A stretch of DNA of 64,000 bases, taken from NCBI RefSeq assembly GCF_988242995.1, contig NZ_OZ547043.1; one strand, written 5' to 3'. The notes below the pieces were generated by a model, which saw nothing but the letters and a program-made list of their open reading frames with translations, searched no databases and was not told where the DNA came from. A program made the translations under genes and the position numbers. Shown piece by piece: positions 4,935-46,167 of this stretch (position 1 is its first letter; every line of letters starts with the position of its first letter).

Positions 4935-5094
4935 TTCAAATAATGAGGGAGAATCAGCAAAGCTGCAAAGATTTTCGCCAACAAATTGTCTGCAAATGCA
5001 ACAAACTGTTGATAGAAACGGCAAACAGTTGGGGAATTTAAAAATCGGGTTTGACAAAAGATTTTTCGCCGTTAAGATGTGCCTCAACAGCGAT

Positions 5095-5170
5095 TCCTCT
5101 GTAGTTCAGTCGGTAGAACGGCGGACTGTTAATCCGTATGTCACTGGTTCGAGTCCAGTCAGAGGAGCCA
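5095..5170 (+). tRNA. asnU: tRNA-Asn
   Basis: TCCTCTGTAGTTCAGTCGGTAGAACGGCGGACTGTTAATCCGTATGTCACTGGTTCGAGTCCAGTCAGAGGAGCCA, GTT anticodon loop. Confidence 0.95.
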
Positions 5171-5180
5171 AATTTCTGAA

Positions 5181-5207
5181 AAGCCCGCTTTTATAGCGGG
5201 CTTTTTG
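5181..5207 (+). terminator. rho-independent terminator after asnU
   Basis: aagcccgct ... agcgggctt hairpin followed by TTTTT. Confidence 0.6.
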
Positions 5208-6158: not shown

Positions 6159-6259
6159 GGTAAACTCCGGGCAGTTCAGATATCCCGTTATTGTTAAAGT
6201 CTAACGCCCGGCATAACAAATAATAAAAACCCGCATCTTATTCCATCCCGATATAACGC

Positions 6260-7177: not shown

Positions 7178-7503
7178 GTTGCCTCCGGTTTTTAAGAATC
7201 GGCCCAAGTGCCGCCATTACTTACAACCAGAAAGCAAGATGCTTGCCAGTTCTATTTTGGCGTTGATGCGCAAGCTAACCAACTGTCAAATAAAAGATTA
7301 TGATAGATTCGTCATTGGCCCTTTTTATCAGCAGTCGCATTCACCTGCCCTATAAAAGGAGGGTATGCACCACGATGGTTCATTACACAATAAGATTGAA
7401 AGCTCACCACTTTGTTGAAATTGGCAGCAAACAAACAAAAAAATACATTTCACCCTTTGACATCACCATGCACTGCCATTAATATGCGCCCCGTTCACAC
7501 GAT

Positions 7504-7579
7504 TCCTCTGTAGTTCAGTCGGTAGAACGGCGGACTGTTAATCCGTATGTCACTGGTTCGAGTCCAGTCAGAGGAGCCA
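7504..7579 (+). tRNA. asnV: tRNA-Asn
   Basis: 76 nt identical to asnU copy. Confidence 0.95.
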
Positions 7580-7587
7580 AATTCAAA

Positions 7588-7615
7588 AAAAGCCTGCTTT
7601 CGAGCAGGCTTTTTA
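7588..7615 (+). terminator. rho-independent terminator after asnV
   Basis: aaagcctgct / agcaggcttt hairpin followed by T-run. Confidence 0.6.
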
Positions 7616-7635
7616 CTTTCTAATTACCAACGCTC

Positions 7636-8568
7636 TTAAAACATCTGTCTTGAACCAGAACTAATTTGCACAGGCATTCCCGATCGACGTTGCAACGCAG
7701 CATTTGCGCGATTTACATCAACTTCTTGCCCGTTGATAAACGCCCGCAAAGATGGGGTTACCGGCAATGGCACTTTTCGGTCAGACTCATATTCTGCACG
7801 ATTGCGCGACAGCGGCTCATGAACTTCCAGCCACTTTGAACCATCCGGTTCCGTTGTGTATTTCACTGGCTGATCAATAATTTGTACACGAGTGCCTACA
7901 GGAACATTATCAAACAGATATTTGATATCGTCATTGCGCAGACGAATACAGCCCTGACTTACCCGGAGCCCAATACCAAAATTGGCATTGGTACCGTGGA
8001 TGGCATACAACCTGCCAATATAAATCGCGTACAGCCCCATGGGGTTATCGGGCCCCGCAGGAACAAATGCGGGCAAACTCTCCCCTCGTTTCGCATATTC
8101 GCGCCGGGTGTTCGGCGTTGGCGTCCAGGTTGGTGCTTCTTGTTTACGTTCAACGGTAGTCACCCAGTTACGCGGGGTTTCTCGCCCAGCCTGGCCGATA
8201 CCAATAGGAAAGACTTCCACTGTGTTACTGTCTGGCGGATAGTAATAAAGACGCATTTCAGCGACGTTAACCACAATCCCTTTACGAACAGTGGCGGGCA
8301 AAATCAGTTGCTGCGGAATGGTGAGTTGTGAGCCAGGCTTCGGCAAAAAAACATCAGCGCCCGGATTCGCTTCCAGCATATTACTTAACCCTTGCCCGTA
8401 TTGTGCGGCAAAAGTCTCCAGCGGCTGAGTATTGTGATCAGGAACAGTTACAGTAAGCGACTGCCCCACTAAACGGCTACCCTCTGGAGGTAATGGATAA
8501 GTTACCGCCAGGCTATTTTGGCTGGCAAAAAGCAGAGCAAATGAGCAAAGAATATTTACACGACGCAT
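7636..8568 (-). CDS. ldtA: L,D-transpeptidase (YkuD/ErfK family)
   Basis: 310 aa with signal peptide ([21 protein letters not shown]) and YkuD-type catalytic region (HGT...GC). Confidence 0.85.
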
Positions 8569-8632
8569 CATGTCCCTTTCCTAAGTCGCGAATACTATCC
8601 GATAAGTATAGCTTTTATCAGACTTTTCGTTT

Positions 8633-9712
8633 TTAGCTGTTCAAATCAGAAGTCGTATTCCCCGGTAGAACAATATTACTGGCAGCAAGTTCGCCCATGT
8701 TGTTGTATATCGCACAAGCAGCTTCGATGATGGGCATCGCCAGAGCTGCACCACTCCCCTCACCTAAACGCATATCCATATTGAGATAAGGCTCCAGCCC
8801 CAAATGCGAGAGCGCTATACGCGCGCCTTTTTCTACCGACAAGTGAGAAGGAATGAGATACGGTTTGATTGCAGGAGACATCTGGCAGGCTGCGAGCGCA
8901 GCAGCATAAGAAAGAAATCCATCCAGCAACACGGGTAAACCGCAGGAAGCAGCACCTAACATCACTCCAGCTATTCCGACCAAATCAAATCCACCCACTT
9001 TTGCCAGGACATCAATACCATCCTGAGGATTTGGTTGATTCAACGTAATCGCCCGACGCACAACATCAATTTTATTAGCCAGTTTATCTGTCGGCAGGTT
9101 TGCGCCAATCCCAACCACTTCTTCAGGATCCCGGCCAGTGATTGTGCTGACTATTGCTGCTGCCGGTGTCGTGTTTGCCATCCCCAGTTCACCTACACCA
9201 AACAGCGTGACACCGTTTTTTGCCAGCTCCTGCGTATAACATATGACGTCCAAAAGCAACTTTTCAGCCTGACGGCGACTCATTGCCGGAGCTGAAGCAA
9301 TATTGCCGCTACCTCGTGCGACACGCATGTTGATAAGCCTGGGGATAGGCTCAGCAGTATCAATACCAACATCAATTACGTGGACGTTAGCGCCCGCTTG
9401 TTCTGCCAGCACACACACGCCGGTTGTTCCACGGGTCATATTTTCAGCCTGTATGGCTGTCACTTCTTTTGGAGAAATAGCGACCCCTTCCTCCCAGACG
9501 CCGTGATCGGCACACATAACCAGTACCGCTTTTTTGCCCACATGCGGTATGCCATTCAACCCCGGCATTCCTGCCAGTTGTATGGCAAGCGCCTCCAGCT
9601 TTCCCAGGCTACCAACAGGTTTGAGTAACCCGTCAATATGCCGTTGTGCACGCGACATAGCGGCAGAATCGATGGCTGGGATCGTATTCAGTAAATCGGC
9701 AAGTATTTGCAT
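8633..9712 (-). CDS. cobT: nicotinate-nucleotide--dimethylbenzimidazole phosphoribosyltransferase
   Basis: 359 aa, [32 protein letters not shown]... Confidence 0.9.
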
Positions 9713-9723
9713 GTCACGTCTCT

Positions 9724-10467
9724 TTATAGCAGTGCCAGCAGGAAGACCAGTTCACCAAGCTCTATGGCTGCTCCCAGCGTATCGCCCGTTTGCCCGCCCA
9801 GCGTACGTTTGAGAAGCTGACCGAGGATGAAAATCGCCACCATCGTCACCACCATAGCAGCCACACCATGCATACCCGGCAATAATACGGCAGCAAAAAT
9901 AGCGGCTAAGCCGAGTGTGACGCAGGTTTGTCGCCCATCAATTTTGCCAATGAACACATTGCCAAGCCCTTCTTCCCGCGCATAACGATGACGATACATC
10001 AATAATGCGGCAGTCCCGCGGCTGACCGCACATGCTGCCGCCAGCGATGCAAGGATCGATTCGCCACGCAGAGCCAACTCGCTTAACACCAGAATCTTTG
10101 CCAGTACCACAAAAATCAATGCCAGACCGCCGTGGGTGCCTAAACGGCTATCACGCATGATTTCCAACATGCGATCGCGGCTACGTGCAGAAAATACGCC
10201 ATCACAGGTATCAGCGAGGCCGTCCAGATGGAATCCCCCGGTCATCAGCACCAGCACAAGCACGCTAAACAGTGCCGCCAGTGGTGCGCCACACCATGCC
10301 TGCAGCACCATGAAGACCAGCCCGCTAATCGCGCCAAGCAATAATCCAATCAAAGGAAAAGTAATAATACCGCGAGAATAATGCTCGAAATCCAGTCCCT
10401 GGGACCAGCGACGCGGTACAGGCAGACGCGTAATAAATGAGAGCATCGCCCAAAATAATTTACTCAT
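9724..10467 (-). CDS. cobS: cobalamin (5'-phosphate) synthase
   Basis: ORF 9724..10503; start at [18 protein letters not shown]; polytopic membrane protein; overlaps cobU stop. Confidence 0.85.
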
Positions 10468-11009
10468 TTGATTTTTACTCCAATACCAGAAACCACCAGC
10501 CATACTTCATTTGCCGCAGCGGCCAACTGCTGATTTACCCGCCCGGCAATATCACGAAAATGTCGTGCCAGACGACTCTCCGGCACAATCCCCATTCCCA
10601 CTTCGTTAGTCACTAATACAACCTTTGCGGGGCAACGTTGGCAGGCAGCAATCAACGACTGAATCTCAGCATTAATCGCCTGTTCCATCGCCTGATAATC
10701 CCATTCATCAGGGTCTTTATCGCCGCCATAATCAAACAACAGATTAGTCACCATTGTGGTAACGCATTCCAGCAACACAACCTCATTCGGGTTAATGTCT
10801 GCATGAATTAATTCATCAAGATGTTGCCAGCGCTCCACTGTGCGCCAGTGCTCCGGGCGGCCTTGCCGATGATGTTCTATCCGTGCAGCCATCTCATCAT
10901 CAAGGATTTGCGAGGTAGCGATATACAGAACCTGTGAAGAGTCCCCAATAAGCGCCTCTGCGTGGCGACTCTTCCCGCTCCGTGCGCCCCCCGTCACCAA
11001 AATCATCAT
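10464..11009 (-). CDS. cobU: adenosylcobinamide kinase/adenosylcobinamide-phosphate guanylyltransferase
   Basis: 181 aa with P-loop GGARSGKS. Confidence 0.9.
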
Positions 11010-12779
11010 ACCGACTCCTGATTCAAATGTATGATGGTATTCATTGAACAGAACAATGGATCCCCCACCGTTGCTGACCGCAAAACATTTACGCGATTAA
11101 TACTGCGCGTAATATAATTAAAAATCCAGCATTCTCAATCCATTACGAAATAAGATGGCATTACGGAATAGCCAGACTTTCTCGTGTTAACGTCCGACAA
11201 AATGCGTCATTGACAGCGGTTTCTGTGGATTGACACATTTCATTCAGATAATGAATTAATGCTACTGCCGGACCAACCAGCAAACGGGCATTGTGTTCTG
11301 AAATCCAGGCTATTGATTCAACGTCAGCGACAGATCTGCGCTGTAAAAGAACTTGTAAAACAACGCAATAGAATTATCCGGAATGGTGGCGACTATGCAC
11401 TAGAACACCACAATTTCGCTCTCTCGGTAAGGCACTGTCACAGCATTCAACAGAATGTGACTTGCCAGATTTATTAGCGCCACCAGATGTTTAACCGGGT
11501 AACCACGACCCAGTCGGGGATATATTCCATCTTCTCGCTGACATCATCAAGAATAAAAAGGTTTATCACACTCAGAGCAACGTTCTTCAGCAGGCGGGAT
11601 AATTCTTCAACATTTAGAAGATGTGTTATTAAAGGCATACAAACTGGACGTATTGTATTTTCTTTTGGTGGTTGACCTAAGGTAGCAGTTTATCCTGATG
11701 CGCTGAGATTTCTGTAATATCTACGTCAACATTCTCCTCGAATAGAAAATGCAGCCCCGGCAAGTGATTCACATTTTTTAACAAAACGTTGTTAGCGTGC
11801 CATTTTCAGAAGCTCTCCAAGAAAGCGAATTCTTTTCTCAAATTCTGCATTCTCAGACACAGCTTTCTACTCCATGGCAATGGCCCAAATACGAAGTTGC
11901 TCAGGATCATTAGTGGTGCTGAGAAGTTAAATAACCATGCGGAGTACCACTCGTCATCACGTATTTATATATCATGAAGCTATTGTTGTGTTTTGTACAT
12001 CAGTAGATGTATTCTGATATACTCCTTTTGCTAGACATAACCTTTCACCTGCTTGCAAAGCTTCTGTGTTCTGACATTGCCAAATTGTTGCAATTCTGTA
12101 TCCAGCCTTCTTTCAGTCATAGCTTCGGGCCGCGATAAGACTCACTGATCTGACCCTGATTCCTCTTGCAGACTTTATAGACCAATTAAAATGCAGTTTC
12201 TGCAGGTCAACGTCTGACCATCATTGTCATCACTCTGGCCATTAGAGTAACCTTCTGCATTCATCCTTTTGTAAAAAGTTTATAGACTGGCCCCCTGAAT
12301 CTCCAGACAACCAATATCACTTAAATAAGTGATAGTCCTGATACAAGTTTTTAGAGTAGTCATTAGTGAACAGATAATTGTTAACTTAGAACCAGTAAAA
12401 TGCAAACGACGCACCACGCTGGGAAAATCGCTGCTATTCAGCAGAGTTTTGTACCGAGAATTGTGGCCAGCCACTTATTGCTCTCGCGTAAGCAGGTATC
12501 CCCATCGTTTACCAGTCCAGCACATCTTGTGGTCAGGCAGAAGAAGAGCAAACTGTTACTGGACTCACTGCATGCATGGTGGAGAAAAATGCCACGCTAT
12601 CCAAAAATCCAGACTGGGAGAATGGTTCAGCTGTGTACTGAATCAGTGGGGCGCACTCTGTTATTACAGTGTTGACGGTCAGGCGGAGGCAGACATAATG
12701 CCGCGGAAAAAGCCCTTTGTGCCATCTGTCTCGGAAATAAAAACTCTTATGACCTTTGTCAAATATTGAGCCCAAAAAG

Positions 12780-14186
12780 ACCTTACGCAGCTCCGGGAGC
12801 TTCGTTATATCGCGGATTAAAGAACCTGAAACAGTCAGACTGTATCTTGGATTTTACAAACTCTTATTCGGGGATTTTAGCCCCATGACGATTTACGCAG
12901 TGAGCTGGCCTCTTTCTATATGCAGGTATTGGCGCATTCTGACCTCCTGAATTCTTTTACGAGGATCACTCATTCCGTGTCTGACTGCTTCAGGGTTTAA
13001 TTTTGCTTCTGCTGACTGAATGATGATTGGGCAGCAAGTGCAATATCCCACATAAATCCAGTCAACTCACGAGCCACCGCCGTAATGGCTACTTGTGATT
13101 TTTTCCCTTTTGCTGTCAGACTTCGGTAACGAGAACACAATCGTTGTTGAGCTTTCCATGCAATATCTTTGGAATATTGTGTTACAGAATCCGGTCGGTA
13201 ATATATAAGCCATGCACCAACTTTTGCAGGTGTACGATAAGACCAGGCGGCTTCGTAAAGCAGACGTCTCAGTTCGCTGTTTCCAACTTTTGTTATTCCC
13301 CTGGGACGAATGCTGTTTCCACTGGAATATTCCCCTGGAACCAGTCCCAGAAAAGCCATGAGTTGTTTGGGACTGGAAAATCGTGAAAAATCACCCAGTT
13401 CAGCAACCAGGGTTATTGCGGTTAGCTGACCAACACCTTTAAGGGCCTGTAACTGGCAGACCAGATTGCACAGAGACCACTCAGGTAACAGGCGGGATAT
13501 TTCCTGGTCGAGTTGAAGTATGCGATCTTCAATCTGCTCCAGACTCTGACAATAGTGTTGAAAAGCAATCTGTTGAGATGGCTGACTAAATGATTGATTG
13601 GCTAACCAGGTTCGATGTTTGCCGGTCCAGTGCTTCCCTGCATAACGTTTGTCTGTTCGCAATAGCATGCTCAGAATTCGCTGTCGGGCAACTCTGCTGT
13701 CTCGTTTAGCTGCTGCACGGGCTCTGATTAGATCCCGCATAGCTTCATGAGTCAGGTCAGGGATCCAGACAGGGGTAAGTTCACCAGCCCGCAGTAACCT
13801 GGCAAGAGAAATTGCGTCCCGATGATCATTTTTGATTCTGTCTGTCGGTGATTTTGGTATCCGGGAAGGGGCAATAACCTGGCATTTTATATTCATCGCT
13901 GTGAGTTGATGATATAGCCCAAAACCACAGGGGCCAGCCTCATAGCAGGAAAGAATGTTTCCGTAAAGTCCCTGCAATTTCTGAAATAATCGACGTACAG
14001 CCTGGGCTTCGTTGTTAATCGTACCATAATAACGAACTTCGCCAAGCCGTTCAGGTGCAGCAATAGCAACCGCCAACGTTTCTTTATGTACATCCAGCCC
14101 GATGTAAGCTGCAATATTTTCCGAATGCATAATGACCTCCTCTGGAATATCCCACCAATGCTATAGTGAGTATATAAAGGTCATAC
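12780..14186 (-). mobile_element. IS110-family insertion sequence (boundaries approximate, 3' end not determinable by eye)
   Basis: Transposase 12997..14130; upstream end abuts a truncated IS66 tnpC remnant at about 14187; no terminal inverted repeats expected for this family. Confidence 0.4.
12997..14130 (-). CDS. IS110-family transposase (DEDD/RuvC-like)
   Basis: 377 aa; N-terminal YIGLDVHKETLAVAI motif typical of IS110-family transposases; RBS GAGGAGG upstream. Confidence 0.8.
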   Translation of the reverse strand: MHSENIAAYIGLDVHKETLAVAIAAPERLGEVRYYGTINNEAQAVRRLFQKLQGLYGNILSCYEAGPCGFGLYHQLTAMNIKCQVIAPSRIPKSPTDRIKNDHRDAISLARLLRAGELTPVWIPDLTHEAMRDLIRARAAAKRDSRVARQRILSMLLRTDKRYAGKHWTGKHRTWLANQSFSQPSQQIAFQHYCQSLEQIEDRILQLDQEISRLLPEWSLCNLVCQLQALKGVGQLTAITLVAELGDFSRFSSPKQLMAFLGLVPGEYSSGNSIRPRGITKVGNSELRRLLYEAAWSYRTPAKVGAWLIYYRPDSVTQYSKDIAWKAQQRLCSRYRSLTAKGKKSQVAITAVARELTGFMWDIALAAQSSFSQQKQN

Positions 14187-14189
14187 CAT

Positions 14190-14412
14190 CTTTATGTTCT
14201 TCGGCGGCGAGCGCAGTGCACTGTTGTATGGGCTTATCGGCACCTGCCGTCTGAACGACATTGATCCGGAAGCGTATCTGCGCCATATCCTGAGCGTACT
14301 GCCGGAATAACCTTCCAACCGTATTGATGAACTCCTGCCATGGAACGTAGTTCTCACCAATAAATAAGCATCAATATGATTCTCCATTAACGCTTACCTT
14401 TTCTCAGGCTAT
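14190..14412 (+). mobile_element. truncated IS66-family 3' end (tnpC C-terminal remnant plus terminal repeat), diverged
   Basis: Translates to FFGGERSALLYGLIGTCRLNDIDPEAYLRHILSVLPE and PSNRIDELLPWNVVLTNK, matching the C-terminus of TnpC at 23289..24902; ends with degenerate IS66 terminal repeat ...cgcttac. Confidence 0.6.
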
Positions 14413-14505
14413 TTTTGCTTTTTTTTGCTTTTCCCCGCCACTTTATGGTGATTATCACATCAATATACATCGATAGATATTAACGTAACTGCAGTGAGGT
14501 GAAGC

Positions 14506-15720
14506 ATGAAATTTGAACGCCATCATGAAATATTGAAACGACTCAGTAAATTCGGTTCTGTAAAAGTATCCGATCTGTCCAATAGCCTCAATGTAACGAA
14601 AGAAACTATTCGTTCAGATCTTAATGAACTTGCCAGGCTTGGCTATCTGACTCGATGTCATGGCGGTGCTTTTATCGTCCTAGACTCGCTTGATACTATT
14701 GCGAAAAATGAAATCGCTTATGCGCTTGAAAATTATGATACAGCCCAGGGAATAAAAAAAGGCCACTCAACTATGAAAAGTCAAGTATGCGTTATTGGTT
14801 CGTTTAATGTTGATATCATCAGTTATTTGCCGAGGCTTCCCACTATCGGAGAATCGCTTCTGGCAAGTAATTTTATATTTTCACCGGGGGGAAAAGACTG
14901 TAACCAGGCGCTGGCAGCAAGCTTTGCCGATACTGATGTTTATTTCATAACAAAAGTAGGTACAGATCACTTTAGTGATTATGCGATCAACTTTATGAAT
15001 TCGTCTAAGATTTATAAAAGTATAATTTATCAAACGAAAGAAACGCAAACCGAAACTGCCACGATCCTTGTTAATGAAGGTACTGGCGATAATGTTATTG
15101 CGATCTATCCCGGTGCCAACATGACAATGTCGCCCGATGAAATAACTATTCAGAAAGAAGCGATTATTAATTCTGATGTCATACTTCTGCAGCTCGAAAC
15201 AAATTATACCGCTCTGCAACAAGCGATCACATTGGCGCAAAAAAACAGTATCCCGGTCATTATTAACCCGGCACCCTATAATGATATCGTCAACGAACTT
15301 ATTCAGGATGTTGATTATATCACCCCCAATGAAACAGAAGCTGGTTTACTGTCCGGCATAGACGTACACGATCTTGAATCAGCTAAACGAGCTGCAGAAG
15401 CTATCCACAATAAAGGGGTAAAAAACACGGTTATCACGCTCGGTAGCAAGGGCTCGCTCGCATTTGATGGCAAAAAATTCATTCATTCGCCAGCGTTTCC
15501 AGCGGTCGTTAAAAATACGGCAGGAGCCGGGGATGCGTTTAACGGCTCTCTGGCATCAGGACTTGCGAAAGGAAAATCACTGGAATCAGCACTGTGTTAT
15601 GCCAGCGCCTTTGCATCCCTAGCGGTGGAGACAAGCAATGCTTCCGACATGCCTGAACATGAATCTGTGATACATCGAATTCAGAGTATACATTATCAGC
15701 AAACTATTTTTACGCATTAA
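14506..15720 (+). CDS. DeoR-type HTH domain fused to PfkB/ribokinase-family carbohydrate kinase
   Basis: 404 aa; N-terminal DeoR-like HTH (VKVSDLSNSLNVTKETIRSDLNELARLGYLTRCHGGA) then PfkB body with GAGDAF signature near C-terminus. Confidence 0.7.
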   Translation: MKFERHHEILKRLSKFGSVKVSDLSNSLNVTKETIRSDLNELARLGYLTRCHGGAFIVLDSLDTIAKNEIAYALENYDTAQGIKKGHSTMKSQVCVIGSFNVDIISYLPRLPTIGESLLASNFIFSPGGKDCNQALAASFADTDVYFITKVGTDHFSDYAINFMNSSKIYKSIIYQTKETQTETATILVNEGTGDNVIAIYPGANMTMSPDEITIQKEAIINSDVILLQLETNYTALQQAITLAQKNSIPVIINPAPYNDIVNELIQDVDYITPNETEAGLLSGIDVHDLESAKRAAEAIHNKGVKNTVITLGSKGSLAFDGKKFIHSPAFPAVVKNTAGAGDAFNGSLASGLAKGKSLESALCYASAFASLAVETSNASDMPEHESVIHRIQSIHYQQTIFTH

Positions 15721-15733
15721 GAAGGGACAGAGA

Positions 15734-16492
15734 ATGAATAACACCAAAAAATCACTAAAAGTGCTCTTTATTGGGGAATCCTGGCATATTCATATGATTC
15801 ATTCAAAAGGATATGACAGTTTTACCTCAAGTAAATATGAAGAAGGTGCGACCTGGTTACTCCAGTGTCTGAAAAATAGTCAGGTAGATGTCACCTATAT
15901 GCCAGCACATACGGTACAAATTGCCTTCCCTGAAGATGTGGCACAGTTAGAACAATATGATGCCATCGTTATTAGTGATATTGGTAGTAATACTTTCCTG
16001 CTACAAAATGATACTTTTTATCAGCTTCGCATAAAACCAAACGCTCTCGAACTGATTAAAGAATATGTGAATAACGGTGGTGGGTTATTGATGATTGGCG
16101 GCTATCTCTCATTCATGGGAATTGAAGCAAAAGCCAATTATAAAAATACAGTTCTGGCTGATGTGCTCCCGGTTACGATGTTAGATGGTGACGATCGTGT
16201 CGAAAAACCAGAGGGTGTTATTGCACAGCCATCACAACCTGAACATCCAGTTATTAAAGGGTTCTCTGAATATCCTTTTTTCCTAGGTTATAACCGGGCG
16301 ATCGCTAAAGAAAATGCTGAGGTGGTATTAACAATAAACAACGCTCCATTACTGGTCTTTGGTAACTATCACAACGGGAAAATAGCCTGCTTTATGAGTG
16401 ACTGTTCACCGCACTGGGGTACACAGCAGTTTATGTCCTGGCCGTTCTATACCGCGTTGTGGGTAAATATACTGACTCATATTGCAAGATAA
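15734..16492 (+). CDS. hypothetical protein, possibly class-I glutamine amidotransferase-like fold
   Basis: 252 aa ORF immediately downstream of the kinase gene (14-nt gap); fold assignment is pattern-based only. Confidence 0.5.
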   Translation: MNNTKKSLKVLFIGESWHIHMIHSKGYDSFTSSKYEEGATWLLQCLKNSQVDVTYMPAHTVQIAFPEDVAQLEQYDAIVISDIGSNTFLLQNDTFYQLRIKPNALELIKEYVNNGGGLLMIGGYLSFMGIEAKANYKNTVLADVLPVTMLDGDDRVEKPEGVIAQPSQPEHPVIKGFSEYPFFLGYNRAIAKENAEVVLTINNAPLLVFGNYHNGKIACFMSDCSPHWGTQQFMSWPFYTALWVNILTHIAR

Positions 16493-16548
16493 TAATAATA
16501 ATGGGGTAACTCCAGTTACTCCATTTACTATAATAGAAGGATTGATGT

Positions 16549-17514
16549 ATGAAAAAGAATAAGTACTCAACTCCCTTATGGATGCTTGCCACGATTCTTG
16601 CGGGTATGCTCTCCCCTATGCAATCAGCGGTGAATGGTCAATTAGGTCACTGGTTACAGGATGGTAATGCATGCGCAGTTATCTCCTTTGCCAGTGGTTT
16701 AGTCGTGATGTTTTTTATTATTATGGCGCGAAAAGAAACCCGGCAACAATTTGCGGCAATTCCTTCTCTGATTAAAAACCGAAAAGTTCCTCTCTGGAAC
16801 TGGTTTGCCGGTCTCTGTGGAGCGATGGTGGTATTTTCTGAAGGCGCATCAGCCAGCGCACTCGGGGTCGCAACGTTTCAAACCGCACTGATCTCCGCGC
16901 TATTGCTGTCTGGTTTACTTTGCGATCGCTTTGGTATCGGTGTCGACGAGAAAAAATACTTTACCCCTTATCGCATCATCGGTGCATTATTTGCGGTTAT
17001 TGCTACGATTTTTGTTGTGTCACCTCAGTGGCATTCTACCTCTTTCATCTTACTTGCCATTCTTCCGTTCTTAGCTGGTTTGCTTGCAGGATGGCAGCCC
17101 GCTGGAAATGCAAAAGTAGCTGAAGCTACGGGATCCATGCTGGTTTCAATCACCTAGAATTTCATCGTTGGATTTTGTGTTTTAGGCACAGCGCTAGCTA
17201 TTCGTGTCGCATTAGGGCACGTCACTGTTCAATTACCAGATGTCTGGTGGATGTATCTTGGCGGCCCGCTTGGACTAATGTCTATCGGTTTAATGGCCAT
17301 TTTGGTCAGAGGTCTGGGGTTACTGATGCTGGGGGTTGCTTCAACGGCGGGCCAGTTACTGGGATCAGTATTGATTGACGTATTAATTCCATCGCTGGGC
17401 AATAGCGTTTATCTGGTCACGATCATCGGAACACTGTTTGCACTGGTCGGTGCAATTGTTACCACTATTCCGGAATACAGAACCTCGAAAACAATGAAGA
17501 AAATGGAGGTATAA
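16549..17514 (+). pseudogene. DMT/DUF606-type membrane transporter with single in-frame amber stop (TAG at 17155..17157)
   Basis: ORFs 16549..17157 and 17251..17514 are in the same frame; only one TAG interrupts a continuous about 320-codon hydrophobic reading frame. Confidence 0.5.
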
Positions 17515-17516
17515 TC

Positions 17517-18551
17517 ATGAAAGATTATCTACAAACTGTGACGGGCCCCGTCGCCCGTGAAGATATGGGGCTAACACTTCCTCATGAACATCTGTTCAAC
17601 GATCTTTCCTCTGTTGTGGATGCTCCTTGCTATCCTTTTTCACAACGGCTTGTTGATAAAAAAGTCACGGCAGAAATCCAGTGGGCATTAAAACACGATC
17701 CTTATTGCTGCGCTGATAATATGGACCGCAAACCTATTGAAGATGTGATCTTCGAAATTAATAACTTTATCTCGCTCGGTGGTCGCACCATTGTTGATGC
17801 CACAGGGTCTGAGTCTATCGGACGAGATGCGCAGGCATTACGAGAAGTCGCATTAAAAACAGGTCTGAATATTGTTGCTTCCTCCGGTCCCTACCTGGAA
17901 AAATTTGAAAGCCAGAGAATTCATAAAACGGTTGATGAACTGGCGACAACGATCGATAAAGAATTGAATCAAGGGATTGGCGATACGGATATTCGTGCCG
18001 GAATGATCGGTGAAATAGGTGTTTCACCGACATTTACCGAAGCCGAGCATAACAGCTTGCGGGCTGCCTCGCTGGCACAGATTAACAATCCTCATGTGGC
18101 GATGAATATTCACATGCCGGGCTGGCTTCGTCGCGGTGATGAAGTACTCGACATTGTGTTAGGTGAAATGGGCGTCTCGCCAAATAAAGTCTCTCTCGCA
18201 CACTCGGATCCGTCAGGAAAAGACGTGGCGTATCAGCGGAAAATGCTTGATAAAGGTGTCTGGCTGGAATTCGACATGATTGGCCTAGACATTACCTTCC
18301 CGAAAGAGGGAATAGCGCCAGGGGTGCAGGAGACTGCCGATGCCGTCGCTCATCTCATTGAGTTGGGTTACGCCGATCAGCTTGTTCTCAGCCACGATGT
18401 CTTCCTTAAACAAATGTGGGCTAAAAATGGCGGTAATGGCTGGGGATTTGTTCCAGATGTTTTTCTGGCCTATCTGGCGGAGCGCGGCGTCGATAAAACG
18501 ATCCTCAAAAAACTCTGTATCGATAATCCCGGACGATTATTGACCGCATAA
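17517..18551 (+). CDS. phosphotriesterase-related protein (PHP/amidohydrolase family)
   Basis: 344 aa; N-terminal GLTLPHEHL metal-binding motif typical of phosphotriesterase homology proteins. Confidence 0.8.
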   Translation: MKDYLQTVTGPVAREDMGLTLPHEHLFNDLSSVVDAPCYPFSQRLVDKKVTAEIQWALKHDPYCCADNMDRKPIEDVIFEINNFISLGGRTIVDATGSESIGRDAQALREVALKTGLNIVASSGPYLEKFESQRIHKTVDELATTIDKELNQGIGDTDIRAGMIGEIGVSPTFTEAEHNSLRAASLAQINNPHVAMNIHMPGWLRRGDEVLDIVLGEMGVSPNKVSLAHSDPSGKDVAYQRKMLDKGVWLEFDMIGLDITFPKEGIAPGVQETADAVAHLIELGYADQLVLSHDVFLKQMWAKNGGNGWGFVPDVFLAYLAERGVDKTILKKLCIDNPGRLLTA

Positions 18552-18595
18552 AACCATTATCCCCCGGCACATTGCGCCGGGGGATGTCAATTAAT

Positions 18596-18957
18596 ACCCC
18601 GCCGTTAAATCATCCACCAAGCGCGAGTCGGATGCGCCGTACAACTCACCATCCGACCCAACCATAATGCTTTGCGTGCTGCCCATCGCCTCATTCAGCG
18701 CCACTTTCTGACCTTTTGCATCCAGCAGCTTGAGCGTATCCGGACTAAACCCTTTTCAACACGCAGCTCGTCCGGCAACCACTGATAGTGGAAACGAGGC
18801 GCATTGGTCGCTTCGGCAACATTCATTCCACAATTGATGCTGTTCACCACCATTTGCAGCACGGTAGTGATGATCCAGCTACCGGTAACAAAGTGAGTAC
18901 ATAAAGGCCATACTGTCACGAACAGTGCAAAAGTGGCTCTTCCGCAACCTGGGTGAA
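18596..18957 (-). pseudogene. 3' remnant of a gamma-glutamyltranspeptidase gene
   Basis: Minus-strand translation gives ...NAPRFHYQWLPDELRVEKG and, after a frameshift, GFSPDTLKLLDAKGQKVALNEAMGSTQSIMVGSDGELYGASDSR, a GGT C-terminus. Confidence 0.6.
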
Positions 18958-20600
18958 GATTTTCATGCCAGTGGACTCATTACCCTCCGCCTAAGTAGTT
19001 CAAGTCCGGCTCGACCATACATCTGGCGTATCAGCACCTTCAGGCGATTTACATGACCTTCGACAACACCAGTACTCCAGCGACTGCTGATTGCCTCACA
19101 TATAGCCGCAGCATCAGCTTCCATCCCCGCAGCTACGCACCGAAGTTCTGCTGAGCCGCTTTCGTGGACCCGAGTGAACCAGCTGCTTAGCTGTGATTTA
19201 TTTTAGGTTTTCAGAATACGGTAGAACTCGAGTACCAGTTGCTGCGCTATTTTCAACTCCGGTTCTTTTTCACACATCAGACTAATAAATCGGAAAGCAT
19301 AATTTTCTTCACCCCTGATTATTCTCCAGGGCATCAACCAGCGGCTTACCCGGGACACTGAAGGAAGTCTTGCGGCAGTAGTAACCGGTGGGATCCAGCC
19401 TTTACGCCATTTGGCAACAGCATCCCTGACGATGGTTTCACTGCCTGTAACCCCCCTGGCCACCATTTCCCGCCATATCCGGCCGGAGTTATAATTACCA
19501 CATTCTCGTTGCTCTTTTAACCACTCCCTCCATGGGTCCAGAAGCCCTCGCTTTGGAGGCCTAGTTGACATTTCAGGGAATGTTCCTGAACCCACCCAGC
19601 GACTGACTGTCACTCGCGACAGGCCTGTAATACGGGATATTTCCCTGAAACTACATCCCTTGTTATGCAGGGCCATAACCTCTGTCCAACGCTGATGCCG
19701 TTTTTTGCGGATGTGCTGTTTAAGGCGTTCCAGACGACGGAGCGATGCTACAGGCACAGATATTTCTGGCTCAGGTGATTTCTTCAGTGATAACTCTCTG
19801 ACAACAAGACGTATCAGAGGCATATGTCTGTACATCATTCGTTCAGGCTCATCACCAATATTTTTTAGCAGGTGCCATCGATCGGCCACCTGTCTGGCCT
19901 GAGGTGCACCTTCACGTGCTGCTGTCGCATAGACTCCACTGCGATCACGCGAGACAACCTGTATTTCCGGATATTTTCTGAACCAGGTCGCCAGCGTACG
20001 CTGATCACGGCCGGGAAGCAGGACGAGGGGACGGTGAGTATCAAGATTGACTATTAACATACCGCAGCAGTGGCCCCGATGCCACGCCCACTCATCAATA
20101 CCGACATGAGGCGCGCCTGACTGTTTCGTCTCCGGGGTATTGATAACCCTGCGAAGAAGAGTATCAGCACTGCAACGGAGACCCGCTGCCGTTGCAGCCC
20201 GTTTTCCAGCCTCACCTCCAGCTATTAATCCCAGTTGACGTTGTAAATTTTGTAACGCCTGTGAAGACTGCTGGTGTGAACCGGCGAAGGGAGCAAGCGA
20301 CTCGGCAAAAATTTTACGTGAACAAGCCGGGTTACGGCAGTACCAGTGGCGGACGGAAAATACAAGCCATAGCGTCTGCCCTGAGCAGGGTAGATGCTGT
20401 ATCCGGCGCCGACGACAACTATGAACAGAGTCGCTACGCTTAAAGCATTCAGGACATTGTGCTGTTTTGCGTTTTCCGTGGAGATGGAGGGTTATACCGT
20501 CAGAGCTAATAATTTGTCGACTGCATCGCCATCCGCAAGGTAACTGTAGAAGTGTCTTAAGAGAGTGCATTGCGTTGCCCATAACTTAAAACAGCTTAGA
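18958..20600 (-). mobile_element. ISL3-family element with disrupted transposase (boundaries approximate)
   Basis: Transposase reading frame broken near 19200; no terminal repeats identified by eye. Confidence 0.4.
19203..20582 (-). CDS. ISL3-family-like transposase (N-terminal and central part)
   Basis: 459-aa ORF with Cys-rich zinc-finger region, GIDEWAWHRGH...LIVNLDTHRPLVLL DDE-like core and VADRWHLLKN; the conserved ISL3 C-terminal motif (STGVVEGHVNRLKVLIRQMYGRAGLELLRRRV) lies in another frame at 18960..19200. Confidence 0.55.
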   Translation of the reverse strand: MGNAMHSLKTLLQLPCGWRCSRQIISSDGITLHLHGKRKTAQCPECFKRSDSVHSCRRRRIQHLPCSGQTLWLVFSVRHWYCRNPACSRKIFAESLAPFAGSHQQSSQALQNLQRQLGLIAGGEAGKRAATAAGLRCSADTLLRRVINTPETKQSGAPHVGIDEWAWHRGHCCGMLIVNLDTHRPLVLLPGRDQRTLATWFRKYPEIQVVSRDRSGVYATAAREGAPQARQVADRWHLLKNIGDEPERMMYRHMPLIRLVVRELSLKKSPEPEISVPVASLRRLERLKQHIRKKRHQRWTEVMALHNKGCSFREISRITGLSRVTVSRWVGSGTFPEMSTRPPKRGLLDPWREWLKEQRECGNYNSGRIWREMVARGVTGSETIVRDAVAKWRKGWIPPVTTAARLPSVSRVSRWLMPWRIIRGEENYAFRFISLMCEKEPELKIAQQLVLEFYRILKT

Positions 20601-28421: not shown

Positions 28422-29990
28422 TCAGGCAGGCAGAGTAACCCGCCACGGGAGCAGAGCACCCACCCGGTTCACAGGCCAGTCGGCGATGACATCAAGTACA
28501 TGATGCAGATAGCGTTCCGGATCCACGCCGTTTAATTTGCACGTCCCGATAAGACTGTACAGTGACGCACCGCGCTCACCACCATGATCCGAGCCGAAGA
28601 ACAGCCAGTTTTTTCTCCCCAGACTGACCAGTCGTAGGGCGTTTTCGGCAATGTTATTATCCACCTCCACCCAGCCATCTTCTGCATAGCGGGTCAGCGC
28701 CGGCCACTGGTTCAGCGCATACCCGAACGCCTTCGCCAGTTCTGAGTGCCTTGAGAGGGTTTTCTGTTTCTCCCGCAGCCACCCCTCCAGTGACGCCAGC
28801 AGCGGCAGCACTTTTTGGTGCCGGACTGCCTGCCGTTCCTCTGCTCTTTTACCTCTGAGCTCCGACTCGATGGCATACAGCTCGCCGATCCGTTTCAGCG
28901 CCTCCTCCGTCAGGGCTGACGGGGTACGGACGTGAACATCGTGGATTTTTCGGCGGGCATGGGCCCAGCACGTGGCTTCCTTTATATGGCCGTCGCGGTA
29001 GAGCTCGTTGAACCCGGCGTAGGCATCAGCCTGCAGTACGCCACTGAAGCCTGCAAGATGGGTCTGAGGGTGGATACCTTTTCTGTCCGGGCTGTAAGCG
29101 AACCACACTGCGGGGGCCAGCGCTGATCCGGCGTTGCGGTCGTCTCGAACGTACGTCCATAAGCGCCCGGTCTTCGTCTTCTTATTGCCCGGCAACAGCA
29201 CCGGGACAGGCATATCGTCAGCATGGAGTTTGCCGTCGGTCAGGACATAGTGCTGAAGGGCTTCATCCAGCGGTGCCAGCAGACGACAACACGCATCCAC
29301 CCAGCCCGACAGTACAGAACGACTCAACACTACACCCTGGCGGGCATAGATCTCCGACTGGCGATACAGCGGTATGTGCTCTGCATACTTTGAGGTCAGC
29401 ACTCGGGCCAGCAGCCCCGGTCCGGCGATCCCCCGTTCGATGGGGCGCGAAGGAGCCGGGGCCTGAACGATGCGATCGCACCGACGGCAGGCATGCTTTT
29501 CACGGACTGTCCGGATAACCCGGAAGGCGCTGCGCATCAGCTCCAGCTGTTCGGCGGCATCCTCACCCAGGTAACTCAGCGAACCACCGCACTCCGGGCA
29601 ACACGGCTCAGTCGGCAGCAGCCGCTTCTCATCCCGTGGGAGTGACTCAGGGAACGGTTTGCGGGTGCGGGTCTGACGCAGCGGGCGCTGCACTGCCGGG
29701 TCATCCACCCGGCCGGTCAGCGTATCGCTTTCCTGCTGCAGCAGGTTCAGGTCAGCTTCCATTTGCGCGATACGGCGGGATACCTTTTCGGAACGACTGC
29801 CGAAGTTCATCCGGCGCAGCTTATCCAGTTGCGCCTGCAGATGGTCTATTTCGCGTTCCCGGTTGCTCAGCTTTTCCTGCAGGGCGTGGATCAACGCTTC
29901 CTGTTCGGCCAGGCGCTGTTTCAGCAGAAGGATGTCGTCAGAAGAGGTGTCGTTCATAAGCCTGTATTTTCCAGGCTTATTCTGCGACAA
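28422..29990 (-). CDS. IS66-family transposase TnpC
   Basis: 522 aa; same architecture as 23289..24902 but clearly diverged in sequence. Confidence 0.85.
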   Translation of the reverse strand: MSQNKPGKYRLMNDTSSDDILLLKQRLAEQEALIHALQEKLSNREREIDHLQAQLDKLRRMNFGSRSEKVSRRIAQMEADLNLLQQESDTLTGRVDDPAVQRPLRQTRTRKPFPESLPRDEKRLLPTEPCCPECGGSLSYLGEDAAEQLELMRSAFRVIRTVREKHACRRCDRIVQAPAPSRPIERGIAGPGLLARVLTSKYAEHIPLYRQSEIYARQGVVLSRSVLSGWVDACCRLLAPLDEALQHYVLTDGKLHADDMPVPVLLPGNKKTKTGRLWTYVRDDRNAGSALAPAVWFAYSPDRKGIHPQTHLAGFSGVLQADAYAGFNELYRDGHIKEATCWAHARRKIHDVHVRTPSALTEEALKRIGELYAIESELRGKRAEERQAVRHQKVLPLLASLEGWLREKQKTLSRHSELAKAFGYALNQWPALTRYAEDGWVEVDNNIAENALRLVSLGRKNWLFFGSDHGGERGASLYSLIGTCKLNGVDPERYLHHVLDVIADWPVNRVGALLPWRVTLPA

Positions 29991-30005
29991 CCAGGATAAA
30001 GAGCG

Positions 30006-30353
30006 CTACAACATGGTCAGGGATGTCAGTAACCGCTTTGGCTGTCGCCAGTCGATACCTTCCATCAGCATCGCCAGTTGCGCCGGCGTCAGGAACACTT
30101 TGCCATCGCGGGCTGAGGGCCAGGCGAAGCGACCACGTTCTAGTCGCTTTGTCAGCAGGCACAGACCATCGCCGGTGGACCAGAGCAGTTTTACCTGACT
30201 GCCGCTGCGTCCCCGGAAGATGAAGACGTGGCCGGACATCGGGTCATCTTTCAGCGCGGTCTGCACCTTTGCGGCGAGGCCATTGAAGCCGTTGCGCATA
30301 TCGGTGATACCGGCAACCAGCCAGATTTTTGTGCCTGCGGGAAGATTTATCAT
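30006..30353 (-). CDS. IS66 Orf2 (TnpB)
   Basis: 115 aa MINLPAGTKIWLVAGITDMRNGFNGLAAKV... Confidence 0.85.
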   Translation of the reverse strand: MINLPAGTKIWLVAGITDMRNGFNGLAAKVQTALKDDPMSGHVFIFRGRSGSQVKLLWSTGDGLCLLTKRLERGRFAWPSARDGKVFLTPAQLAMLMEGIDWRQPKRLLTSLTML

Positions 30354-30733
30354 ACAGGCCCCCGCATCAGTTCGCGCAGGACAGTGCTCATGAGTTCAGC
30401 AGAGGGATGAGTCAGTGTTATTTCTCCTCCCCGACATTTTATGTGGCAGGTAGCGGGAGGAGAGCAGGATGGTAGTTCGAAGGTTGGGAGAGAAGAGCCC
30501 GCCTGAAGCTGCACGGGTATCAGGGCAGGAAGCGACGATGAGTTTTTTCGGGGCCGACAGACCCGCCCTTCACGCTGCCAGAGCCTTATCCATTTAAAGA
30601 GCAGGTTATCATTGACGTCATGTTTCCGGGCCAGTGCGGCAATACTGCCTTCTTCTTCAAGAGCCAGCCTGACCAGTTCCATTTTGAATTCAGGGGAATA
30701 GTGTTTCCGGGGAAGTCTTTCTTTAGCGCGCAT
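30350..30733 (-). CDS. IS66 Orf1 (TnpA, HTH)
   Basis: 127 aa; overlaps orf2 by 4 nt. Confidence 0.8.
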   Translation of the reverse strand: MRAKERLPRKHYSPEFKMELVRLALEEEGSIAALARKHDVNDNLLFKWIRLWQREGRVCRPRKNSSSLPALIPVQLQAGSSLPTFELPSCSPPATCHIKCRGGEITLTHPSAELMSTVLRELMRGPV

Positions 30734-41839: not shown

Positions 41840-41854
41840 ATGGAGAGAAGCACA

Positions 41855-42331
41855 ATGCAACAACTTTCCTTTCTGCCCGGAGAGATGACGCCCGGCGAGC
41901 GCAGCCTCATTCAGCGGGCCCTGAAAACCCTGGACCGCCATCTTCATGAACCCGGCGTGGCCTTCACCTCCACCCGTGCAGCACGGGAATGGCTGATTCT
42001 GAACATGGCGGGACTGGAGCGTGAAGAATTCCGGGTGCTGTATCTGAACAACCAGAATCAGCTGATTGCCGGTGAAACCCTCTTCACCGGCACCATCAAC
42101 CGCACGGAAGTCCATCCCCGGGAAGTGATTAAACGCGCCCTGTACCACAATGCCGCTGCCGTGGTACTGGCACACAATCACCCGTCCGGTGAAGTCACAC
42201 CCAGTAAGGCAGACCGGCTTATCACCGAACGTCTGGTACAGGCACTGGGCCTGGTGGATATCCGGGTGCCGGACCATCTGATAGTCGGTGGCAACCAGGT
42301 TTTCTCCTTTGCCGAACATGGTCTGCTTTAA
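41855..42331 (+). CDS. yeeS: RadC-like JAB-domain protein
   Basis: Start at MQQLSFL with GGAGAG RBS; JAMM motif HNHPSGEVTPSKAD. Confidence 0.8.
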   Translation: MQQLSFLPGEMTPGERSLIQRALKTLDRHLHEPGVAFTSTRAAREWLILNMAGLEREEFRVLYLNNQNQLIAGETLFTGTINRTEVHPREVIKRALYHNAAAVVLAHNHPSGEVTPSKADRLITERLVQALGLVDIRVPDHLIVGGNQVFSFAEHGLL

Positions 42332-42393
42332 CCCTTCACAACCACATCACACCTGTTTTCACTTTTATCTTCTGTCTTCAGAGGTATCCCATT

Positions 42394-42615
42394 ATGAAAA
42401 TTATCACCCGTGGTGAAGCCATGCGTATTCACCAACAACATCCGACATCCCGTCTTTTTCCGTTCTGTACCGGTAAATACCGCTGGCACGGCAGTGCTGA
42501 AGCGTATACCGGTCGTGAAGTGCAGGATATTCCCGGTGTGCTGGCCGTGTTTGCTGAACGCCGTAAGGACAGTTTTGGTCCGTATGTCCGGCTGATGAGC
42601 GTCACCCTGAACTGA
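42394..42615 (+). CDS. yeeT: DUF987 protein YeeT
   Basis: 73 aa MKIITRGEAMRIHQQHPTSRLFPFCTGKYRWHG... Confidence 0.75.
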   Translation: MKIITRGEAMRIHQQHPTSRLFPFCTGKYRWHGSAEAYTGREVQDIPGVLAVFAERRKDSFGPYVRLMSVTLN

Positions 42616-42688
42616 GTGGGAATTCTGATGAGCAGAATTATCGCCACTACCGGACCATTCTTAGCCGATTTTCTGTAAGGATTTTATC

Positions 42689-43057
42689 GTGTCAGACACA
42701 CTCCCCGGGACAACACTTCCCGACGACAATCACGACCGCCCCTGGTGGGGGCTGCCCTGCACCGTGACGCCCTGTTTCGGGGCACGTCTGGTGCAGGAGG
42801 GTAACCGGTTGCATTACCTTGCCGACCGCGCCGGTATCAGAGGCCTGTTCAGCGATGCAGATGCGTACCACCTGGACCAGGCCTTTCCGCTGCTGATGAA
42901 ACAACTGGAACTCATGCTCACCAGCGGTGAACTGAATCCCCGCCATCAGCATACCGTCACGCTGTATGCAAAAGGGCTGACCTGCAAAGCCGATACCCTC
43001 AGCAGTTGTGGTTACGTTTATCTGGCTGTTTATCCGACGCCCGAAATGAAAAATTAA
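42689..43057 (+). CDS. cbeA: type IV toxin-antitoxin antitoxin CbeA (YeeU)
   Basis: 122 aa, intact. Confidence 0.8.
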   Translation: MSDTLPGTTLPDDNHDRPWWGLPCTVTPCFGARLVQEGNRLHYLADRAGIRGLFSDADAYHLDQAFPLLMKQLELMLTSGELNPRHQHTVTLYAKGLTCKADTLSSCGYVYLAVYPTPEMKN

Positions 43058-43145
43058 CTCTCCAGAATAGCCTTCTGCTACGGCCTGGTGTTTTCACCAC
43101 GCCACTTTTCCATTTTTATATCTGCATATCAGGAAAATCTTCAGT

Positions 43146-43519
43146 ATGAAAACATTACCTGTATTACCCGGGCAGGCGGCCAGTTCTCGCCCGTCTCCTG
43201 TTGAAATCTGGCAGATACTGCTGTCCCGACTGCTGGACCAGCACTATGGCCTCACACTGAATGACACACCTTTTGCCGATGAACGTGTGATTGAGCAGCA
43301 TATTGAGGCAGGCATTTCACTGTGTGATGCGGTGAACTTTCTCGTGGAAAAATACGCGCTGATGCTACCGACCAGCCGGGATTCAGCGCCTGTACCCGCT
43401 CTCAGTTAATAAACAGCATCGATATCCTCCGGGCTCGCAGGGCGACCGGCCTGATGACCCGCGACAATTACAGAACGGTAAATAACATTACCCTGGGTAA
43501 GTATCCGGAGGCGAAATGA
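43146..43519 (+). pseudogene. cbtA: CbtA (YeeV) toxin gene with frameshift
   Basis: N-terminal 73 aa typical of CbtA, then frame shifts ([19 protein letters not shown] stop); the expected C-terminus NSIDILRARRATGLMTRDNYRTVNNITLGKYPEAK is encoded in another frame ending at 43519. Confidence 0.7.
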
Positions 43520-43710
43520 TGACACTGGAAGCCGACAGCGTTAACGTACAGGCGCTGGATATGGGGCACATTGTCGTTGACATTGATGGTGTTAATATCA
43601 CTGAACTGATTAATAAGGCCGCTGAAAACGGTTATTCACTCCGCGTGGTGGATGACCGTGACTCTACCGAAACACCGGCAACTTATGCCAGCCCTCACCA
43701 GTTGCTGTAA
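43516..43710 (+). CDS. yeeW: YeeW-like small protein
   Basis: 64 aa; start overlaps cbtA stop (ATGA). Confidence 0.6.
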   Translation: MMTLEADSVNVQALDMGHIVVDIDGVNITELINKAAENGYSLRVVDDRDSTETPATYASPHQLL

Positions 43711-43865
43711 GACAATGCAGTGATGCAGGGTATAGTGCCATTAACCACAGAAACAGCACTGTTGTCCTGTATTAAGCAGGCAAGAGAAGATGTCCTTACC
43801 CTGCGCCATCTGCAGCTTCTGCACCAGAACCGGTGAATCTCACTCAACAGGCTTCATTTCCCCTG

Positions 43866-43895
43866 ACGCCAGCCTGAATACAGCTGGCGTTTTCA
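43866..43895 (+). terminator. rho-independent terminator
   Basis: acgccagc ctgaataca gctggcgt hairpin followed by tttcattt. Confidence 0.55.
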
Positions 43896-44094
43896 TTTAT
43901 AAACAGAAAGGAAAACCGATAATAATGGAATGGACGCCCCGACCATGAAGCAACGGTAGGATATTACTGATAAACCTTCCAGTGGAGGTGCGTTATGGCC
44001 GTTTTAACGATTAGCATTGACCTGACAAAAAATGAATTCCAAATCCACGGTCTGGGTAGGAACAGAAAAATCTAAGCTCAGAAAACGGATTAAA

Positions 44095-44253
44095 GTAAGC
44101 GTCAACGGAGCACCGTATTGACGCTTATTTATTGGTGAGAACTACGTTCCATGGCAGGAGTTCGTCAACACGGTTGGAGGGCCATTCCGGCAGTATGCTC
44201 AGAATATGGCGCAGATACGCTTCCGGATCGATACCGTTCAGACGGCAGGTGCC
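44095..44253 (-). mobile_element. truncated IS66-family 3' end fragment (near-identical to end of IS66 copy 1)
   Basis: 159 bp matching 23259..23417 with a few mismatches; ends abruptly at 44253. Confidence 0.7.
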
Positions 44254-44507
44254 TGCTTTTCCGGCAACAAGCAGGAATCTCAGTGCTGAAGCAGGAATTA
44301 GAGGTAAAAACGCCCTACCGGGCCATGAATCACCCGGTCATTGGAGTAGTAACCAAAGCAGATTTAGCCAGCATGGAACAAATATCTTTGGTGAAAAGTT
44401 GGTTACGGGAAGCTGGAGCGCACAACGTGTTAGTAACCAGTGCAGTTAATAACAATGGAGTTACAGAACTTTTTGCCTTGCTGCATACAGAAGAAGGCTG
44501 TTGTTAA
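44254..44507 (+). pseudogene. C-terminal fragment of a EutP/PduV-like GTPase gene (yoeF-like remnant)
   Basis: Encodes ...NHPVIGVVTKADLASMEQISLVKSWLREAGAHNVLVTSAVNNNGVTELFALLHTEEGCC; 5' part replaced by the IS66 fragment. Confidence 0.4.
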
Positions 44508-45108: not shown

Positions 45109-46167
45109 TTATTTGCGCAAGGCCCGGCAAATCAGATTCGATAGCAACTCAAGCTGATGTGCCGTTTCCATGTTCAGCCACACATAACCATAGATTGGTG
45201 TTTCCACAACCTTCAGGTCATGGTGGTTATTGAGCAACTGACGCAGCTCTTCCACAGCATCGTTCAATTTTTCCGTATTGGCAAAAACCGGCTGCGGATT
45301 ACCTTCGTACAACGCATGAACAAGGCTCAGCAGTATTTGCTGCATCATGTGCTGGGTATCACGAAGTTTTTGCGCGTTCAATAACACGAAATGGCTGGGG
45401 CGCGTGGCCCAGTACGCATTGATTTGCAACTCCAGCATACAAACCAGATTGCGGTTAATGGTCTGGATACCTTCATATATCGATTTTGGAATACGGGTTT
45501 CTTTGCTGGCGGGCGCAATCAGCCCACGCATTTTCACGGCATCGGTCAGGAGTTTTTGTAGATGGCTTTCCAGACGTGGGCGTTCGAGTAAGTTCGGTGA
45601 GAATGCAGATTGATAGACCCGATTATACTCGGTCAGACTTTTCGCCAGTTGAATGCGCCAGTGGATGAACGCCCGTTGTGGCCAGATACCGGTAAACAAC
45701 ATTGCCAGTAAAGAGCCGAGGATCACATCGCCGCTTCGCCATAACGCCGTATCAATTTCACCTGTCGGGGAACCAACAACAATTGCCAGCGTCACCCCAA
45801 TCAATAATCCTTGATACGGTTTCTTGCCCAGCGCCAGCCAACCGCAAAGAAACATAGCCGCCGCGCACCAGACTAACATCAGCGGTAACGAGATTAACTC
45901 CAGTTGCAGAGCGATAAGACCTAATATCGAACCCAACACCGTACCGCCAATACGTTCGAAGGCGCGAGGGACAACGTTACCCCAGAACGAGATTGGCCCC
46001 ATAATCACCACCATGGTGACCAGCGGCCAGGTACTTTCCGGGATAGTAAACAGGCGGATAATGAGAAAAGTGAGCAGGAATGCCAGCGCGACCCGAGTAC
46101 CATGCACAATGCGGTAATGGCGGTATACCCGGATTTCAAACGGGCTTAATGACTTATCGGCACGCAC
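45109..46167 (-). CDS. yeeA: inner membrane protein YeeA (FUSC-like)
   Basis: 352 aa, multi-pass membrane N-terminus. Confidence 0.85.
   Translation of the reverse strand: MRADKSLSPFEIRVYRHYRIVHGTRVALAFLLTFLIIRLFTIPESTWPLVTMVVIMGPISFWGNVVPRAFERIGGTVLGSILGLIALQLELISLPLMLVWCAAAMFLCGWLALGKKPYQGLLIGVTLAIVVGSPTGEIDTALWRSGDVILGSLLAMLFTGIWPQRAFIHWRIQLAKSLTEYNRVYQSAFSPNLLERPRLESHLQKLLTDAVKMRGLIAPASKETRIPKSIYEGIQTINRNLVCMLELQINAYWATRPSHFVLLNAQKLRDTQHMMQQILLSLVHALYEGNPQPVFANTEKLNDAVEELRQLLNNHHDLKVVETPIYGYVWLNMETAHQLELLSNLICRALRK

Follow-up and report, generated by a model that had tools for sequence, protein, structure and literature searches.

The toxin gene cbtA (yeeV) at 43146-43519 of the analysed DNA (a stretch of 64,000 nucleotides from contig NZ_OZ547043.1, hereafter the window) is, with a probability of roughly 85%, an inherited loss-of-function allele of an ordinary kind; the CP4-44-like island around it is decaying, with the antitoxin gene retained. 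It represents the toxin gene of a type IV CbtA/CbeA module, and the island that carries it occupies the yeeW-tmaR-yeeA locus in an S88-like E. coli of sequence type ST95. Loss of a single G in codon 74 yields 73 native codons followed by 14 out-of-frame codons and the stop TAA (43407-43409), leaving the last 50 cbtA codons (including predicted helices 91-101 and 109-116 as well as the DILRARRATGL motif) untranslated; with cbeA intact, the module would be effectively antitoxin-only. The original prediction of an inactivated toxin gene beside an intact antitoxin gene is thus supported by the sequence (1-bp indel, intact cbeA) as well as by comparisons with other strains. From this arrangement we infer the loss of CbtA toxicity and, further, a complete loss of activity.

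The cbtA reading frame and its genomic surroundings

The cbtA pseudogene (43146..43519, + strand) comprises 374 nt, as against 375 nt in the intact gene. Pairwise alignment with cbtA of E. coli K-12 MG1655 gives 373 matches out of 375 nt, with two differences on the + strand. One is the deletion of G221 of the K-12 gene (the middle base of codon 74, CGT to C-T), located between 43365 and 43366, while the other is the substitution G217A (V73M) at 43362, which is specific to the clade around strain S88. The alignment pinpoints the 1-bp indel that had been suspected from the sequence, demonstrates that the break is real and bears out the earlier coordinates of 43146-43519. Likewise, the predicted break after about 73 codons is evident from three-frame translation and tblastn, as residues 1-73 of CbtA are encoded in one frame at 43146-43364. 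The truncated ORF continues to 43409 (43146..43409, + strand) and specifies 87 aa, i.e., 73 native codons (with V73M) and 14 out-of-frame codons. The conserved C-terminal region lies in another frame, as had been claimed: codons 75-124 and the original TGA occupy the -1 frame of the + strand at 43367..43519, with residues 75-124 (43367-43516) being 100% identical to K-12 and the TGA located at 43517-43519.

Domain analysis reflects the same division. The 87-aa ORF matches CbtA_toxin (PF06755; gathering cut-off of 25 bits) with 127.1 bits over model positions 1-73 of 112, and the -1 frame segment matches the same model with 50.8 bits over positions 75-112. No single uninterrupted ORF spans CbtA_toxin positions 1-112 in the window, the domain being split over two frames. 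Judged by its sequence, the window cbtA is a member of the CbtA_toxin family by descent, but as a pseudogene. Separate translation of the C-terminal half was considered and rejected, since the first start in the -1 frame opens an ORF of just 21 codons; according to the ORF list, none of the internal starts in this frame (43367..43519) opens a reading frame that reaches 30 aa.

The upstream antitoxin gene cbeA (yeeU; 42689..43057, + strand) had been described as intact, and this holds on every count: it encodes 122 aa, of which 121 are identical to K-12 CbeA in tblastn (D108G being the sole difference), and matches CbeA_antitoxin (PF06154) with 178.5 bits over model positions 1-100 of 101. The gene is situated directly 5' of cbtA on the same strand, ending 88 nt before it, and is annotated as WP_001285585.1 in N53, CEA601S and ATCC 11775. 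Further upstream lie two more genes of this module, yeeS (with a RadC-like JAB domain) and yeeT (DUF987) at 41840..42615 (+ strand), identified from Pfam matches and the N53 annotation. Downstream, the ORF list and Pfam place yeeW (43516..43710, + strand), a 64-aa ORF with only the N-terminal DUF5983 domain. The ATG of yeeW overlaps the original cbtA stop (ATGA at 43516-43519); as ribosomes translating the broken cbtA stop 107 nt upstream, any translational coupling between cbtA and yeeW is probably lost. The scan for promoters and terminators around the cbtA locus returned consensus-level matches only, close to the shuffle expectation.

The segment from 41.8 to 46.2 kb covers the right-hand terminus of the CP4-44-like island, where it adjoins core genes. 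Its order is yeeS, yeeT, cbeA, cbtA, yeeW, decayed fragments, tmaR/yeeX, yeeA and sbmC, in agreement with the annotation of the near-identical N53 and CEA601S as well as of K-12 (N53 locus coordinates are converted to window coordinates by adding 14,099). The decayed island end (43744..44507, strand unassigned) consists of DUF957, transposase and EutP/PduV (yoeF) fragments, as per the PGAP annotation of the identical N53 sequence and the K-12 annotation of yoeD and yoeF. Decay is visible upstream too: PGAP annotation of the matching N53 sequence lists, at 18591-20582 and 28422-30733, a frameshifted gamma-glutamyltransferase (ggt) fragment, an ISL3 transposase interrupted by a stop codon and copies of IS66. 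The island around cbtA is therefore visibly decaying, and the suggestion that the inactivated toxin belongs to such an island is borne out by these surrounding pseudogenes and IS fragments.

At the scale of the whole window, about 46 kb (approximately 17.9-63.9 kb) differ from N53 by only two mismatches, at 43336 and 39615. At 43336, N53 carries a G (resulting in N64S in the truncated ORF) and the window keeps the ancestral A. The window is also about 100% identical to S88, MS7163 and N62 over 28-50 kb, and this near-identity to all four strains places the source of the window among S88-like E. coli of ST95, phylogroup B2. The left part of the window departs from this uniformity. Positions 14300-17942 (PfkB kinase, glutamine amidotransferase and DMT transporter genes) carry 31 SNPs relative to N53 in 3.6 kb, followed by near-identity for 46 kb, and the cluster looks like a recombination tract boundary. 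For positions 1-14300 (amn, yeeN, three tRNA genes annotated as tRNA-Asn in the corresponding UTI89 sequence, yeeO, cbl, nac, cobT and the IS110-family element ISEc45), identity to the best-matching complete genome is only 98.7%, as compared with about 100% for the remaining window; thus, the strain is mosaic relative to its sequenced relatives. On the right, yefM and yoeB (54788-55290, - strand) form a type II toxin-antitoxin pair that is apparently intact and adjoins the leader of the his operon (Rfam His_leader, 55600-55723), and the sRNA STnc240 is found at 52786-52860.

Possible programmed frameshifting or residual activity of the truncated product

The original prediction had also allowed that the two frames might reflect programmed frameshifting. 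On this reading, -1 ribosomal frameshifting or transcriptional slippage would restore full-length CbtA at a low level and provide a regulated dosage. The arrangement has features that would permit this: the -1 frame is open from 43328, creating an overlap of about 27 codons (43328-43409); the overlap includes an A5 run (GGAAAAAT, 43348-43352) as a possible tRNA-Lys slip site; and the downstream 50 codons have stayed 100% identical to K-12. Nevertheless, a scan of the entire ORF found no X XXY YYZ slippery heptamer and left the A5 run as the sole candidate, which is present equally in the intact K-12 and UTI89 alleles and is therefore no adaptation to the deletion. No stable stimulatory structure follows the run, as the 88 nt at 43353-43440 fold at -22.2 kcal/mol (z = -0.34 against shuffles), and an Rfam search gave no match at the cbtA locus. 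The two-frame arrangement is not conserved among homologues: in K-12 and UTI89 the locus holds one uninterrupted ORF of 375 nt, and near-full-length members of the family are likewise single ORFs, the aligned representatives (for example, P0038, P0046 and P0051) being collinear with the query over residues 1-116 or 1-119. That the 3' half has stayed intact is accounted for by how little the module as a whole has diverged. Programmed frameshifting, rejected on the heptamer scan, the RNA fold with shuffles, the Rfam search and the comparison with intact alleles, is thus a highly improbable explanation. A recent article (PMC13294457, 2026) does propose a programmed frameshift in cbtA neighbourhoods; however, that site lies 3' of cbtA, where it would link DUF5983 proteins (the yeeW family) to a segment matching AntiFam, and differs from the break in the window cbtA.

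With an ordinary loss-of-function allele as the preferred reading, the properties of the 87-aa product deserve attention, as it might be a functional variant: a toxin with 73 native residues and a 14-residue tail that is partly active (for example, attenuated or inhibitory to FtsZ only), which would explain the kept cbeA. No solved structure of a CbtA relative was found in the PDB copy searched; the AlphaFold2 (AF2) model of intact CbtA, built from a 29-sequence alignment, has a mean pLDDT of 85.7 and predicts five helices (18-34, 46-54, 59-70, 91-101 and 109-116). In this model, the three helices of highest confidence (18-34, 46-54 and 59-70, with pLDDT of about 95 or more) are kept in the truncated product. 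Reportedly, a C-terminally truncated YeeV still gave cell elongation in the work of Tan et al. in 2011, and this would favour partial activity. Binding of MreB needs R15 and binding of FtsZ needs F65 (Heller et al., PMC5624674), and both residues precede the break and are kept in the 87-aa product. In addition, the deletion allele is very frequent, and cbeA is intact next to the deletion-bearing cbtA at each examined locus where it is visible.

Against partial activity, the truncation removes the last two helices predicted by AF2 and the DILRARRATGL stretch conserved in the family alignment, so that 39 of the 112 conserved Pfam positions are missing from the 87-aa product. Furthermore, truncated alleles carry substitutions at positions that are nearly invariant in the family alignment, as would be expected where constraint is absent: N64S occurs in the truncated CbtA of N53 (which also has V73M) and D40N in a truncated variant deposited on 418 contigs. 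Though the sample is small, these two substitutions suggest relaxed constraint. Retention of cbeA, moreover, needs no cognate toxin. CbeA acts on FtsZ and MreB polymers rather than on the toxin (PMC5624674), which offers a toxin-independent reason to retain the gene, and it is described as protecting these polymers generally (Masuda 2012, as cited in PMC5624674). A partly active product is thus unlikely. The UTI89 filamentation screen (PMC6206680) was considered as a test of the truncated allele and set aside, because UTI89 carries an intact cbtA at this locus and the screen therefore says nothing on the truncated one.

Distribution and spread of the deletion allele

The deletion allele is already known, being a common pseudogene annotated in RefSeq. 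The exact 71-mer over the junction (in its V73 version) was found in 1,497 records among 5,426 complete E. coli genomes, and the intact K-12 72-mer in 1,785 records when any locus or paralogue is counted. Carriers of the deletion include O157:H7, O145 and O104:H4 as well as ATCC 11775, the type strain of the species, and the junction was also found on nine metagenome contigs. All carriers that were opened (CEA601S, O157:H7 PV15-279, N53 and ATCC 11775) bear the PGAP label 'cbtA, frameshifted'. The window's own junction 71-mer, combining V73M with the deletion, is restricted to 7 of 20,395 records (S88, MS7163, N53, N62, CEA601S and two further), and this clade-specific V73M is the one distinction of the window within the allele class. 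At the protein level, the deposited 87-aa products include the V73 form, on at least 1,000 contigs, and an exact match to the window's own M73 form (P0002), on 86 contigs; among the names given to these truncated proteins is 'toxin of the YeeV-YeeU toxin-antitoxin system'. Among the representatives of CbtA-family clusters at 50% identity (P0031-P0180), many are fragments or chimeras, with the match ending near residue 74 or beginning near residues 81-84. Calling of a broken cbtA as separate ORFs is evidently frequent in public data.

These counts also bear on whether an error in sequencing or assembly could account for the missing base in this genome. Single-base indels are indeed the commonest type of assembly error; however, the deleted G belongs to the context GCGTAC, outside any homopolymer (the only run of at least four bases in the overlap zone being the A5 at 43348-43352), and the same junction has been sequenced independently in about 1,500 complete genomes; it also recurs on nine metagenome contigs and in all of the nearest genomes (N53, N62, S88, MS7163 and CEA601S). 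An error was excluded on the basis of this context and the population counts, and its probability is negligible.

Intact alleles of 375 nt segregate at this locus, being present in K-12 as well as in UTI89, a strain that likewise belongs to ST95. The UTI89 copy (L006:39425-39799) shows a few silent differences, and its CbeA is 95.9% identical to that of K-12 at the amino acid level. As UTI89 is intact and the window is broken, intact and null cbtA alleles coexist within one sequence type, and the situation at this one locus resembles a simple null polymorphism.

The block containing the module is unusually uniform across phylogroups relative to its neighbours. Among the window (B2), K-12 (A) and O157 (E), yeeT-cbeA-cbtA-yeeW (42394-43710, approximately 1.3 kb) differs at 2-3 sites, as compared with 12-15 of 1,059 sites in the core gene yeeA (45109-46167) and 21-46 of 492 sites in yeeS. 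In the metagenome contigs (L008-L016), protein identity is 96-100% over the deletion-bearing 3' half, whereas the 5' half of CbtA is only 81-86% identical to K-12 in three of them (L010, L012 and L015), and CbeA of L015 is only 63% identical to K-12 CbeA. The mosaic pattern in these sequences suggests that recombination or gene conversion among paralogous islands moved the deletion-bearing segment; if so, such transfer would account for the low divergence as well as for a 3' half that is still 'perfect' though out of frame.

The high frequency of the allele and its occurrence in several paralogous backgrounds could, going by these sequence patterns, reflect selection instead of drift. The deletion allele might then be a selected, attenuated toxin, in which the 87-aa product acts weakly on FtsZ/MreB or interferes with intact paralogous toxins, and the advantageous 3' half has been spread by recombination among paralogous islands. 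This proposal is speculative and quite improbable.

Significance and comparison with known systems

The broken cbtA has little importance beyond correct annotation. In comparisons of toxin-antitoxin repertoires of extraintestinal pathogenic (ExPEC) ST95, the CP4-44-type module of the window is to be counted as antitoxin-only. Findings on K-12 CbtA should not be applied to deletion carriers, which make up many E. coli lineages, O157:H7 and the type strain among them. Beyond this, the presence of one specific null allele at high frequency in several paralogous backgrounds, with loss of the toxin and persistence of the antitoxin, represents a small population-genetic curiosity.

Amongst the closest known systems is the RefSeq class of 'cbtA, frameshifted' genes (O157:H7, O104:H4, ATCC 11775, S88 and about 1,500 complete genomes), which share the same deletion, position and neighbourhood and of which the window is a member; to this class the window adds V73M, common to only seven S88-like records, without the N64S of N53. 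Another, CbtA/CbeA (YeeV/YeeU) of the cryptic prophage CP4-44 in E. coli K-12, occupies the same chromosomal locus (yeeS-yeeT-cbeA-cbtA-yeeW-...-tmaR-yeeA-sbmC); however, codon 74 of the window gene lacks one G and V73M is present, hence the full-length toxin is not encoded. The island itself is larger than CP4-44 of K-12 and carries other cargo (including dynamin-like, RdcB-family and patatin-like genes and IS66 elements). The paralogous K-12 modules YkfI/YafW (CP4-6) and YpjF/YfjZ (CP4-57) have their Pfam families and gene order in common with the window module, and their toxins YkfI and YpjF are intact and toxic (PMC5371832); unlike these intact paralogues, the window copy is of the CP4-44 type in sequence. 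Finally, the metagenome contigs harbour the same deletion-bearing 3' half as the window, fused to divergent, paralogue-like 5' halves and accompanied by divergent antitoxins.
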